Source of the DNA: an uncultured virus (IMG/VR IMGVR_UViG_2706794523_000001)
Lineage: Duplodnaviria; Heunggongvirae; Uroviricota; Caudoviricetes; Schitoviridae
DNA length: 64,000 nt
Reading direction: 5' to 3' (one strand)
Virus record (IMG/VR): IMGVR_UViG_2706794523_000001
Coordinates: 1-64,000 of that record
This document shows positions 4,821 through 61,407 of the stretch, piece by piece; position 1 is the stretch's first letter; every line of letters starts with the position of its first letter. Both the position numbers and the translations under genes were made by a program. The notes under the pieces were generated by a model, which worked only from the letters and a program-made list of their open reading frames with translations, made no database searches and was not told where the DNA came from.

Positions 4821-6254
4821 TCAGACCAACAGCGCCTCGATTGCAGGCAGGAATGCCCCAGCCCAGATCTGCTGCCCAGCATCGTTGAAATGCACGATGT
4901 CGGCATAGTAGTTCGCCGAATAGGACGACAGTTCCGGGATAGCCGCCAGATCGACCAGGACCGCACCGGATTTCAGCGAGGCATAGTTGGCTCGCAGCCA
5001 GGTGTTGTAATCGATACGCGCCGTGCCGCTTTCCGTCGAGCGGAAGGGGCAGGTAGCCACAATAAGCGACTGGCTGGCATTAAGACCCGAACAGTACGTC
5101 TGCAGGTCAGCCTGCGCCTGAGCAGCTGTGCGGCTGGCCGTGAAGTCATTGATCGCCGGCCCACCCATGACGACGATGTTCTTCGTGTAGGCGGCATTGT
5201 AGTTGGCTGCAATTCGTGCCGCCACGTTGGTCGCCATTGAATTGAGCAATTGACCGCCAATGCCCATATTGATGGCGTGAGCGGGCTTGCTCAGCGAGTT
5301 GAGAACACGCTTTGGCCAGGTCTGGTTCAGCAGATGGCCAGAACCTTCTGTACGGCTGTCCCCGTCAAAGATGATCAGATTGTTAGCCGAGGTCCGCACG
5401 TTGCATTGCGCGTAAAGAGCGGCTTCGACCAGAAGACACTCGGCATCCGAAAGGGTTCGATTGTAGATGACGCATGCCAGGAGATCGAACTCACCGTCAA
5501 AGCTCGCAGTCGAGCTGTGGTGACCAAAAGCAATGCCCTGCACCGTGCCGGCCGCTGGAGCCGTAGCAACCAGCTGTGTCGAACCATTGATGCCAAACTG
5601 CTTGCCGGTGGGTCCGCCTCTCCAGCGGATCACCTGTGGCTGAATGAGCGGCATTTTGCGGGTCGAGATGAACGGCGTCGTGTTGTTGCCCCGGATGCCG
5701 ACGTTGTTCGACTGGGTGAACAGCGACAGCGTCGTCGCCGTGTCAGGCTGGCAGGTATAATAGTTATCGTTGAACGAGAACGACGGGACGATCAACAGGA
5801 ATTGAGTGAAGGCCGACTTTTCTGTCACTGGCCCGCTCGATACGCCCATGTATTTCGACTGCACACCGACTGCGAGAGGCGAGCTGTCAAAATGGACGGC
5901 CGGCATAACGCCATTGATCAGCAGATTGCTGGCCGCTGGCTGATTGGCTTTTGTCGCCTGGAGAGGATGGTTTCCGCTGCCCGTCTGATCGTAGAGGGCC
6001 TTCCAACGGTGAGACGAAAGAGTGAGCCCCGACACGTCGGCGAACTTGGAACCAAAGGAGATATCCCCCTCGACATCGTCGGAGATCCGCTGAACCTTCC
6101 CCATGGCTCCGCTATAGTCGGAGACCAGCTTCGAGGTTCCGACCACGAACGTTGGCGCACCGACCGATGTGGGTAGGAACACCGGATCAGGAGCAGGTGC
6201 CCCAAACAGATTTAAAATCGGGGAACCCGATAACCTTCCAGGGCGCCCGAGCAT
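4821..6254 (-). CDS. LamG/ConA-like domain plus SGNH(GDSL) hydrolase; probable virion-associated esterase
   Basis: GDSRTEG (block I), NMGIGG, INDF, DIVHFN (DxxH); N-terminal YDQTGSGNH...YNRTLSDAE lectin-like region. Confidence 0.8.
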   Translation of the reverse strand: MLGRPGRLSGSPILNLFGAPAPDPVFLPTSVGAPTFVVGTSKLVSDYSGAMGKVQRISDDVEGDISFGSKFADVSGLTLSSHRWKALYDQTGSGNHPLQATKANQPAASNLLINGVMPAVHFDSSPLAVGVQSKYMGVSSGPVTEKSAFTQFLLIVPSFSFNDNYYTCQPDTATTLSLFTQSNNVGIRGNNTTPFISTRKMPLIQPQVIRWRGGPTGKQFGINGSTQLVATAPAAGTVQGIAFGHHSSTASFDGEFDLLACVIYNRTLSDAECLLVEAALYAQCNVRTSANNLIIFDGDSRTEGSGHLLNQTWPKRVLNSLSKPAHAINMGIGGQLLNSMATNVAARIAANYNAAYTKNIVVMGGPAINDFTASRTAAQAQADLQTYCSGLNASQSLIVATCPFRSTESGTARIDYNTWLRANYASLKSGAVLVDLAAIPELSSYSANYYADIVHFNDAGQQIWAGAFLPAIEALLV

Positions 6255-8354: not shown

Positions 8355-8954
8355 ATGAGCGAACAAGCAACGAGGGAGGCGCCGACTGTCCTCACTCAAC
8401 GTTTGGTCTTCGACGACAATGAGATCCCGGCCTTCCTGAAGAAGGATCGTCCGGGTCCGAAGTCGGTTCAGATCGAGGAGCCTGCGGCGGCCCCTGCAAT
8501 CAGCGAGCCGACCAACGAGAGCATCGTAGTGGTGGATAAGACCCCTGCGGCCCAGGAAGCGCCTGCCGAGTTCGTCAAAGAGGTCCAGAACCCGATCATC
8601 GAGGCGGGAGCCGTGATGACCGGCCATGGCATCGCCGACGGAAATGGCTCGGACAATCCCGACGAACCAACGATCGAGGATCTGCAGCGTCAGCAGCAGG
8701 AGATCGATCAGAAGATCCGGGAGAAGCGCGAAGCCGAGAAGCGTTCGGTGATCGAGCAGATCGTGAGCGTGGTCAACACGTACAAGATCCCGGTCGAGGA
8801 GCTCGTCGAAGCCCTGGGCGGCATCAAGGTCAAGCGCAAGGGCGTCAAAGCCAAGCCGAAGTACAAGGACCCGGCCACCGGCCAGATCTGGTCCGGCCGC
8901 GGCAAGGAGCCTGCCTGGATCAAGGGCAAGGATCGGAAGCCCTTCGAACTCTAA
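8355..8954 (+). CDS. hns: H-NS-family protein with a long acidic N-terminal extension
   Basis: C-terminal KPKYKDPATGQIWSGRGKEPAWI H-NS DNA-binding signature preceded by a coiled coil; AGGAG RBS. Confidence 0.85.
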   Translation: MSEQATREAPTVLTQRLVFDDNEIPAFLKKDRPGPKSVQIEEPAAAPAISEPTNESIVVVDKTPAAQEAPAEFVKEVQNPIIEAGAVMTGHGIADGNGSDNPDEPTIEDLQRQQQEIDQKIREKREAEKRSVIEQIVSVVNTYKIPVEELVEALGGIKVKRKGVKAKPKYKDPATGQIWSGRGKEPAWIKGKDRKPFEL

Positions 8955-57838: not shown

Positions 57839-57919
57839 ATGAGCGATTATGTTCTCTATATCGGGCTCGCGATCGACGCGGCCATCCTGGCCTGGCTTAT
57901 CGTGCGGGACGTCTACTGA
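57839..57919 (+). CDS. 26-aa hydrophobic peptide
   Basis: MSDYVLYIGLAIDAAILAWLIVRDVY; AGGGG RBS; TGATG overlap. Confidence 0.5.
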   Translation: MSDYVLYIGLAIDAAILAWLIVRDVY

Positions 57920-58167
57920 TGCCCCAGATCAAGCTGCTCGACCTGACTGACGCCGAGGTCTCCGAGATTCTGGGAGAGGAGCCAGAGGAAATGACCGTGG
58001 GGCTCGACAACGGCCTGACCCTTCCGGTGACCATGATGCTGGACAAGGATGGCAACCCCACCGACATCGTGTTCGATGCAACGACGCTTCTCGCCGGCTC
58101 GGCCGCGCTCGGCTGGTACGAGATCGACGTCGCCGACGGATCCTGGTCTCGTCCTCTCCTTCACTGA
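57919..58167 (+). CDS. acidic hypothetical protein
   Basis: 82 aa; LDNGLTLP motif. Confidence 0.7.
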   Translation: MPQIKLLDLTDAEVSEILGEEPEEMTVGLDNGLTLPVTMMLDKDGNPTDIVFDATTLLAGSAALGWYEIDVADGSWSRPLLH

Positions 58168-58726: not shown

Positions 58727-59053
58727 ATGGCTACCGTTCTCAGTGCATCTAACGCTACTGCCACGTCGATCCTGTCGACGGTGCAAACGCTGGCTCATAC
58801 TGCTCAGCGTACCATAACCACAGCTGCTGCTGGGTTGGACATGCTGGACACATACGTCGAAGACGCTCGTGTTCGTCAGGCTGATCAGTCCAAGATCAAC
58901 CGGCACAACTACCGTAAGTCGCTCATTCAGGAGTCTGCTCTGGAGCAGGCTCGCAAGGAGCATCAGCTCACACAGGAGATTGGTTCCAACCAGGTCCTGG
59001 CTAAGCTGTTTAATGACAATCATGCAGCTCTGGAGGCGCTTTTCGCCTCCTAA
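58727..59053 (+). CDS. first early protein
   Basis: 108 aa, AGGAG RBS, directly after the hairpin promoter. Confidence 0.8.
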   Translation: MATVLSASNATATSILSTVQTLAHTAQRTITTAAAGLDMLDTYVEDARVRQADQSKINRHNYRKSLIQESALEQARKEHQLTQEIGSNQVLAKLFNDNHAALEALFAS

Positions 59054-59065
59054 TGGAGCTCTAAG

Positions 59066-59087
59066 ACTCAGCGCTTCGGCGCTGGGT
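59066..59087 (+). terminator. cUUCGg hairpin after the first early gene
   Basis: ACTCAGCGC-TTCG-GCGCTGGGT; no U-tract. Confidence 0.45.
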
Positions 59088-59202
59088 CACACCATTATCT
59101 CGATAGTATATTCAAATTATCGCGGTAATCCCCAACATACTGTGACGACAGACCATCGGTTCTGGCGCATCAATCAACCACTCAAATCGCGAGGAATTCC
59201 CA

Positions 59203-60220: not shown

Positions 60221-60233
60221 GGCGCTTCGCGCC
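60221..60233 (+). promoter_or_regulatory. vRNAP hairpin early promoter (second copy)
   Basis: Identical GGCGCTTCGCGCC upstream of the gp2-like gene. Confidence 0.8.
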
Positions 60234-60279: not shown

Positions 60280-60738
60280 ATGAGCATTCTCGATTACACC
60301 CGTCCGGCTGCGCCGGCACCGACCTCGCGTTCGCCTTTCGCTGGCCTGACCAGCGTCACCAACGATCGTCCCAAGGCCAAGCTGTGGCTGAACACCGGCT
60401 ACGTCATCGCCGGCTCGGACAAGTTCATCAACCTGCCTGTCGGCCTGCCGATCGACACCATGGAACCGGCACCGGTGGGCGGCCAGAACGAAGACTGGCT
60501 GAAGCAGCGCCAGGCGCAGAACGAGTTCCTCAAGAGCCTGCAGGCTGCCGGCGCCGACATGGCACCGGGCGAGGAACGCGACATCATCCGTCAGGATATG
60601 GGCAATGGCATCACGCTTGTCGTTCGCCTGCGCCGCGTGAACGAAGAGCGGGCTGTCCCGCTGGCCACCAACGAATATGCCGTGAACTTCACGTCCATGT
60701 TCGCCAAGCCGGCGACCATGCCGGAAGCTGCCGAATAA
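60280..60738 (+). CDS. N4 gp2/Drc-like ssDNA-binding activator of RNAP II
   Basis: KAKLWLNTGY, FINLPVGLPIDT, NEFL...APGEE...LRRV. Confidence 0.85.
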   Translation: MSILDYTRPAAPAPTSRSPFAGLTSVTNDRPKAKLWLNTGYVIAGSDKFINLPVGLPIDTMEPAPVGGQNEDWLKQRQAQNEFLKSLQAAGADMAPGEERDIIRQDMGNGITLVVRLRRVNEERAVPLATNEYAVNFTSMFAKPATMPEAAE

Positions 60739-60739
60739 G

Positions 60740-61254
60740 CGGCAACCAGTAACCCAACCCGTGGGTTGAACAGCATCTAAGCACCTGATCAATGCCGCGA
60801 TGAACGAGATGCGATGCTCATTTAACTGCTCGCACAGGAGTCGTCGGGGTACGATCAGCTGCCAACGCAGGAGACTGCAACCATGGACGATTAGATCAGC
60901 CTGCCCGGAGCCATAGGCTCTTGGCAGGTAGGCTACCCAGCTTTTCATGCCCCAATGTGGGTATTCATAGCGCCCTCATATCGACCGCTCATTCGGGCAC
61001 ATCTGGCGCACCGATTATCAACTAAATCATCTGATTGGCGTTCCAATCGACCGCGGCGACAATATCGATTCAGTTCGATCGCACCGCGCTAGAGCGTGTC
61101 TGCCATAATACCTCTCGCTGAATGCGGGTCCTGCCCATTGGACCTTAACTATGGCAGCCCCAGAGGCTCTAACCGTGCGAGTAAGCTGCAGCGTGAGTGC
61201 AGCACCTTGAGGAGGCGTTCCCGTGTGAAAGGGGGCGTCTCCTCCTTTTATTTT
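60740..61254 (+). ncRNA. candidate large structured ncRNA
   Basis: No credible ORF; at least 9 helices read by eye; ends in a strong terminator. Confidence 0.45.
61209..61254 (+). terminator. rho-independent terminator
   Basis: GAGGAGGCGTTCCC...GGGGGCGTCTCCTC followed by CTTTTATTTT. Confidence 0.8.
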
Positions 61255-61407
61255 CAAAAGGGATAGACAGGCATTATCTTTAAAAATAATGAGGAATATG
61301 CCTGTGGATAAGTCGGAGAATTTCGACTCGATTCCTACTTCCTGATTAACTTACTAAATGCTAATCCGACTTTTCTCCAAAAATCGGCGATAAGGAGCCT
61401 AAAATCC

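Follow-up and report, generated by a model that had tools for sequence, protein, structure and literature searches.

A probable structured RNA with a start-stop minigene downstream of gp2 in an N4-like phage that carries an integrase

The locus behind gp2

The segment discussed here lies directly behind a gp2 homologue in an integrase-bearing N4-like phage. The window, that is, the whole 64,000-nt stretch of DNA that was analyzed, comprises the first 64 kb of the 73,302 bases of its genome (G000). N4-like genes of this genome include a 3,496-codon ORF of vRNAP size, a DNA polymerase and an RNA polymerase subunit; its terminase has 69% identity to the N4 terminase, and a tyrosine integrase is encoded at the genome end (72214-73302). 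G000 is likely a rhizobial prophage, because the nearest named integrases are those of Mesorhizobium and because its gp2 and integrase proteins are recorded together on one 475-kb contig. The features of the segment and its surroundings are as follows.

60221..60233, + strand: hairpin of the N4 early (vRNAP) promoter type with template-strand loop GAA, before gp2
60280..60738, + strand: N4 gp2 homologue, a context gene (35% identity to N4 gp2, E 2e-24; phrog_4099)
60766..60780, + strand: last codons (L-N-S-I-stop) of a 154-aa gene that the relative G001 still carries (ending ...ETLNSF-stop)
60781..60860, + strand: long 5′ hairpin, lineage-specific and outside the conserved unit
60869..60894, + strand: minigene with Shine-Dalgarno AGGAG (60869-73), AUG at 60883 and Met-Asp-Asp-stop; counterparts in G001, G002 and G013
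60900..60964, + strand: variable spacer hairpins, one of them (60947-60964) directly before helix P1
60965..61154, + strand: conserved core
61173..61177, + strand: invariant CCGUG, identical in all four copies; possible pseudoknot
61185..61203, + strand: hairpin with a GUGA loop, common to the window and G002; different hairpins in G001 and G013
61209..61254, + strand: intrinsic terminator of 14 pairs, the predicted 3′ end
61262..61407, + strand: AT-rich element ahead of the first middle gene, conserved in relatives whether or not they carry the RNA

As described in PMC7145618, gp2 is a single-stranded DNA-binding cofactor that brings phage RNA polymerase II to middle promoters, and Drc is a functional counterpart unrelated to it. 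The gp2 protein encoded in the window is not Drc. The early-promoter hairpin also precedes gp2 in G001 and G003, with a variant in G013, which agrees with the claim of an earlier sequence-only reading that the segment lies downstream of a vRNAP promoter. This hairpin, a predicted promoter, likely drives both gp2 and the RNA; neither a sigma-70 promoter for the segment nor a promoter of the RNA's own was found. Synthesis in the first minutes of infection, as that reading had proposed, would be expected from the position behind this hairpin and gp2. In the window, 669 nt separate the gp2 stop from the following gene; in 25 related loci this distance, crudely taken, is 67-896 nt. On the downstream side, the AT-rich element is likely the middle (RNA polymerase II) promoter region and would lie outside the RNA. 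It contains TGTGGATAA at 61303-61311, also present in G001, which matches the DnaA-box consensus.

The 5′ part of the segment, previously counted within the unit, does not belong to it: the letters at 60766-60780 are what remains of the end of a deleted gene, and in a close relative (X3 record 4), where similar gene-end letters are joined to 60767, only 15 letters stand in place of 60786-60852. No counterpart of the 60781-60860 hairpin was found in G001, G002 or G013. Because only the last codons of the 154-aa gene remain in the window, its deletion in this lineage likely brought the element onto the gp2 transcript. Between gp2 and the core, G001 carries a terminator-like hairpin and the 154-aa gene; in G013, too, a terminator-like hairpin lies right after gp2. 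The spacer hairpins are of other sequence in G001, X5 and X6. At the 3′ end, the strong terminator that had been called from the letters is present, and its base resembles the terminator directly after gp2 in relatives without the RNA. A NADAR gene directly follows the RNA's terminator in G001 and G002 (L004 4439-4864; L007 3953-4369) and is absent from this place in the window.

Other observations concern the genome at large. The lowest folding z of the early region (-7.8) belongs to 58900-59100, with a UUCG-capped hairpin near 59069-59084 after gp1. An ORF for a very acidic protein of 82 aa (57919-58167, + strand) at the end of the late region is found in all four RNA carriers and weakly in G003; it has no family or Atlas match. 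The ORF at 8355-8954 has an H-NS C-terminal domain and is kept in all four complete relatives compared. Short duplicated stretches around N characters at ~56400 and ~56700 of the window and ~64660 of G000 resemble assembly joins.

Homologues, core helices and the minigene

Four full copies of the element are available, from the window genome, G001, G002 and G013, in addition to four metagenome fragments, with a shared core at 60965-61177. The complete carrier genomes are G000, G001 and G013, G002 being a 23% fragment, and the gp2 proteins of the copy-bearing relatives are 40-55% identical to that of the window. A gp2 profile led to eight viral loci, two of which (G001 and G002) have the element behind gp2. 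Among the loci of the best 80 of 404 terminase relatives, the profile found only G002 again; the fourth copy came to light when the cut record G013 was traced to its opposite end. With the window and G001 as its only input, a covariance model (R1) recovers G002 (E 8e-8) and G013 (E 0.003), with no match in three other loci. Contigs from four sequencing studies carry pieces of the element, and two metagenome contigs join a window-type P2 domain to a G002-like P3 domain. The metagenome runs were chosen for exact words shared with the window, so their exact match over 60966-61028 is partly the result of selection.

Further searches yielded no additional copy. There was no real match by blastn to annotated phages and plasmids, no exact 20-mer of the element in viral contigs, and no downstream half in the 79 metagenome and 64 genome stretches given by motif scans; neither genome contigs nor 121 alphaproteobacterial genomes contained a relative by the gp2 profile. 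A looser viral scan gave 16 stretches, 14 of which were attributed to chance, as was L014, and the best match of a second covariance model (R2), in L249, lies within a gene. A filtered model search across 32 records recovered G001 and G002 but not the known G013 copy, and is thus too blunt to show absence. Unfiltered model scans gave best E-values of 0.25 in G030, 0.026 in G045 (68 nt, within a gene) and 0.17 in G003; the absence from G029 is that given by the profile HMM and the filtered model.

The element could not be matched earlier to tmRNA, RNase P or an intron, and database scans agree. Rfam 15, including its tmRNA, RNase P, group I/II intron, riboswitch, ribozyme and C4 families, gave nothing at the gathering threshold in the window, and ARAGORN called no tRNA or tmRNA gene there. 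The best Rfam E-values across the four copies (5, 4.4, 3.3 and 0.017) each belong to a different family, and the match at 0.017 covers the terminator only, with 23.9 of 45 bits. Separately, the minus strand of L234 has at ~5000-5450 some 430 nt without an evident gene, rich in hairpins, after the gp2 terminator of another N4-like phage. This stretch has no match in Rfam or to model R2 and is a candidate for a separate RNA.

The conserved core has the following parts.

60965-70/61149-54, + strand: P1, closing the junction
60971-74/61005-08, + strand: P2, containing hairpin P2b
60987-98, + strand: P2b, the hairpin inside P2
61034-40/61101-06, + strand: P3, enclosing a variable domain
61116-26, + strand: P4, a core helix
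61127-44, + strand: P5, a core helix
61145-48, + strand: linker between P5 and the 3′ strand of P1

The junction closed by P1 thus holds P2 (with P2b), a variable linker, P3, P4 and P5, and all six helices hold in the four full copies. Covariation among homologues, which the sequence-only reading had named as a check, is found among these four sequences as compensatory changes in four helices. P2b occurs as GCUC/GGGC, GCUC/GAGC, GUCC/GGAC with a UUCG loop, and GGGG/CCCC; the GGUC/GACC of P5 becomes CGCC/GGCG in G001, and one pair of P3 is changed in G013. When helices are indexed by hand, 104 of 106 cells pair. A model-fitted alignment, which misplaces part of G002, has 98.7% of 75 cells paired (31-49% in slid-partner controls) and 6 of 21 pairs changed on both sides, a level matched by none of 500 shuffles. 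As the helices were themselves derived from these four related copies, the shuffle counts are no probabilities. The G013 copy is a fairer test than shuffle counts: P1, P2, P2b and P5 were written down before it was found, and it keeps all four, including a P2b of wholly different sequence that still pairs.

The G-U pairs and the UUCG, UACG and GUGA loops point to RNA of the + strand. Block spacings across copies differ by non-multiples of three, with frame-breaking indels, so no shared frame crosses the core. The longest complements in the phages' own genomes are 11-16 nt, have chance E-values and differ from genome to genome. Because no complement exceeds chance and the invariant bases lie mostly within helices, protein or tertiary contacts are favored over antisense pairing. 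No partner of CCGUG common to all four copies was found. The element is very probably a real structured RNA. The earlier proposal of a large structured phage noncoding RNA is thus supported by homologues, covariation and empty Rfam scans, but the conserved unit is smaller, folds otherwise and includes a minigene.

Dense structure by itself does not distinguish the segment. All 13 stem pairs listed by the sequence-only reading are present, at or within a few bases of their places, and the 515 nt fold at z = -3.87 (-3.9 without the terminator), but this is not special in the early region, where other windows fold at z -7.8, -4.8 and -4.7. The mean z of 59 random 200-nt windows from this genome is -1.3, and 7 of them lie below -3; the conserved core folds at -2.0 and two homologues at +0.3 and +0.8. 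Because other early windows fold as well or better and two homologues fold at chance, dense structure is no evidence for the RNA.

Two of the listed helices, CTGCCATA/TATGGCAG (61100-57) and GATTGG/CCAATC, are not conserved pairings and compete with P1 and P3. The CTGCCATA/TATGGCAG helix pairs the 3′ strands of P3 and P1 and so excludes both helices. Such an alternative helix is possible in all four copies, with -12.3 kcal/mol in the window, where it out-competes P1 and P3, and -5.3, -2.7 and -6.7 kcal/mol in the others. The shared fold lies above the lowest-energy fold by 9.5 kcal/mol in the window copy and by 4.5-5.3 in the others, and the pair probabilities of P1, P2, P2b and P3 in the window copy are at most 0.15. 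Because the shared fold is not that of lowest energy, it would need tertiary contacts or a partner, or the window copy may be drifting.

The segment was said to have no convincing ORF. The + strand indeed has no long ORF, but a conserved three-codon minigene with a Shine-Dalgarno site was missed. Each of the four copies has AGGAG, 6-9 nt, AUG, one or two codons and a stop, encoding MDD in the window, MCM in G001, MK in G002 and MRI in G013, with 71, 46, 45 and 7 nt, respectively, from the minigene end to the core. The codons differ among copies and all three stop codons are used; the act of starting and stopping therefore appears to be conserved, not the peptide. Exactly one such minigene is present on both strands together in each of G000, G001 and G013, which have 23, 23 and 24 AGGAG+ATG sites, respectively; the pattern was fixed after the sites had been seen, and a looser one occurs 10-19 times per genome, or ~0.01-0.02 times per 150 nt. 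Elsewhere, the pattern has three sites in G003 and none in G029, and none lies within 700 nt after gp2 in 24 loci without the RNA. Further start codons lie upstream and in frame with the minigene in G002 and G013. The Shine-Dalgarno site is predicted to be partly or wholly paired in two of the four copies, the window and G001; in the window it falls within the GCAG-GAGA-CUGC hairpin. Pairing of this site with the CUCCU of the terminator was considered and dropped, as the gp2 terminators of RNA-less relatives share that base. The minigene is probably translated and under selection.

Possible roles of the RNA

The distribution of the RNA bears on its role. Integrase and RNA occur together in G000, G001 and G013, and neither is found in G003 and G029, where gene order is intact across the integrase site. 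The G013 integrase (65171-66319) is not matched by that of the window and occupies the same place, after the RNA polymerase genes; integrases of N4-like phages (G000, G013, G030 and G045) have more than one origin. An eight-gene tree gives ((G000,G001),(G013,G003)), each pair having support of 1.0, and places G029 outside them. In three of the eight trees made from single genes, G003 groups with G029 or the outgroup; in the terminase trees it comes closer to G000 and G001. The link to lysogeny consists of one paired loss, in G003. Two of 25 further records, G030 and G045, have an integrase; both are more distant N4-like phages without the RNA, which is therefore clade-restricted and dispensable for some temperate N4-like phages. 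Co-occurrence points weakly toward lysogeny and, taken with position, is what suggests a possible role of the RNA there; we regard such a role as doubtful.

Three small ORFs (534-803 of the window; 68730-68939 and 68944-69222 of G000, equal to L176 4730-5222) are likewise found in G000, G001 and G013 and are absent from G003, G029, G030 and G045. No function was found for them; their proteins are candidate partners of the RNA.

The explanation that we tentatively prefer combines a ribosome guard with a trans-acting, protein-binding core. The virion RNA polymerase would transcribe the RNA from the gp2 promoter, directly in the window and by read-through in G001 and G013. Ribosomes would then start at the minigene and stop at once, and the one bound there would protect the 5′ end against nucleases and bar others from the core. 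The product would be a stable RNA of ~390 nt (60865-61254), cut or read out from the gp2 transcript. For the third step, the weakest, the core would bind a protein in trans and damp middle transcription, possibly favoring lysogeny; gp2 or RNA polymerase II would be the simplest partner, and it is position that points to these two. RNase J may be present in rhizobia, though a look-up did not return it there. Initiating ribosomes block RNase J1 on the hbs mRNA of Bacillus subtilis (PMC5737220). Abundance of the RNA and read-through are argued from phage LUZ7, where Drc accounts for up to 64% of transcripts and more than 60% of terminators allow substantial read-through, as described in PMC9163698.

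The helix that pairs the 3′ strands of P3 and P1, possible in every copy, would also suit a switch in cis, in which the minigene ribosome or a ligand of the core flips P1/P3 to the alternative helix and sets terminator read-through into NADAR and the RNA polymerase II/integrase region. A conserved core followed by a terminator fits such a switch, as do the NADAR gene directly behind the terminator in G001 and G002, the G013 minigene stop 7 nt from P1, and the 5′ block, which is the best-scoring partner of the terminator 5′ strand in the window and G001. However, the anti-terminator partner is a different one in G002 and G013, the gap from stop to P1 varies from 7 to 71 nt, the terminator is like the one that simply follows gp2 in relatives without the RNA, and the AT-rich element occurs whether or not the RNA does. 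We consider a cis switch unlikely. Slightly less credible is a new kind of phage RNA, engaged with the ribosome, whose start-stop minigene docks a host ribosome beside a folded RNA that reads the host translation state and so steers lysis versus lysogeny, as repressors do in other temperate phages.

Conservation of start and stop rather than peptide, in a transcript that would be abundant, might instead reflect an RNA that targets ribosomes: the minigene recruits a ribosome, and either the core traps the ribosome or release factors or tRNA is drained as peptidyl-tRNA, slowing host translation. Short minigenes do inhibit translation via peptidyl-tRNA, an effect that rests on particular rare codons (PMC2490762). 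Here, however, the last sense codons and stops differ in all four copies with no conserved codon prone to drop-off, the spacing to the core is not fixed, and ARAGORN called no tRNA- or tmRNA-like gene in the window. We consider this role improbable.

The sequence-only reading had suggested a decoy, scaffold or anti-defense RNA. Still less probable than ribosome targeting is an anti-defense decoy, made early to bind or saturate a host defense protein, for which the link to lysogeny would be due to chance. The absence of the RNA from the integrase-bearing G030 and G045 is consistent with a decoy, as is the early position, and the mosaic of halves seen in metagenome fragments suggests phage-to-phage exchange. 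Two of the four copies have as neighbor a NADAR gene, which has an anti-defense role. Against this, the element has no repeat, no known antitoxin-like motif and no Rfam match, and core bases that stay invariant while gp2 falls to 40-55% identity are more suggestive of a conserved target than of an arms race.

The deletion of a gene at this very place in this lineage, the predicted misfolding of the window copy and the chance-level folding of two homologues could also indicate a leftover, with the minigene as what is left of a vanished gene and the core as a decaying relic, or else DNA hairpins such as those that serve LUZ7 as middle promoters (PMC9163698). Yet four different short frames retain a Shine-Dalgarno site, a start and an early stop, compensatory changes occur in four helices, and only the + strand suits the G-U pairs and the loops of RNA type, so that this explanation is very hard to maintain. 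Least credible of all is a ribozyme of a new class that would release itself from the gp2 transcript by self-cleavage or splicing while the stop codon protects its folding: the compact junction, its invariant bases and the pseudoknot that CCGUG may form would be compatible with it, but no Rfam ribozyme or intron family matches, no exon frame is conserved downstream, and the 5′ block resembles the glmS cleavage site only superficially.

Relation to known systems

The element is likely an undescribed structured orphan phage RNA with an unusual, probably translated cap. Neither this RNA nor a combination of a 2-3-codon minigene and a structured core was met in the literature searched, which covered few subscription papers. 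The largest phage RNA survey (Fremin et al. 2023) gave no matches in six of its supplementary files. N4-like phages were for a long time regarded as strictly lytic, and those with an integrase have been reported from sequence surveys alone (PMC10654107). The RNA described here lies on what is likely the strongest early transcript and is present in all three complete integrase-bearing genomes of the clade and absent from the integrase-less sister G003. It may therefore offer a small handle on how N4-like phages with a virion-carried polymerase choose or keep lysogeny.

P1 c4 and P4 CI are immunity RNAs of temperate phages and are likewise structured RNAs of integrase-bearing phages; in contrast, the present RNA matches no Rfam family, and its complements in its own genome do not exceed chance. 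The intergenic small RNAs of LUZ7 are also putative noncoding RNAs of an N4-like phage, but those are late, shorter than 250 nt and located between orf69 and orf70, with no covariation reported in the accessible portion of PMC9163698, whereas the element here would be early and is tied to gp2.

The guard proposed in our preferred explanation has its own parallels. Lambda bar is a toxic minigene. Toxic minigenes (PMC2490762) similarly consist of a Shine-Dalgarno site, an AUG, one or two codons and a stop; here, however, the codons are not conserved and a conserved structured domain follows. Ribosome barricades, such as the hbs leader (PMC5737220), STAB-SD and the ermA leader (PMC3997798), likewise have a strong Shine-Dalgarno site near the 5′ end and are proposed to protect what lies downstream. 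Those barricades protect mRNAs, whereas here a full start-stop minigene stands ahead of a noncoding core.

GOLLD and ROOL are large structured orphan RNAs linked to phages and prophages. Like the present element, they are multi-helix noncoding RNAs found by covariation whose function is open (bioRxiv 10.1101/2024.12.08.627333). The RNA described here differs from them in having no Rfam match, in its confinement to one N4-like clade, in its smaller core of ~200 nt and in the minigene that lies upstream of that core.
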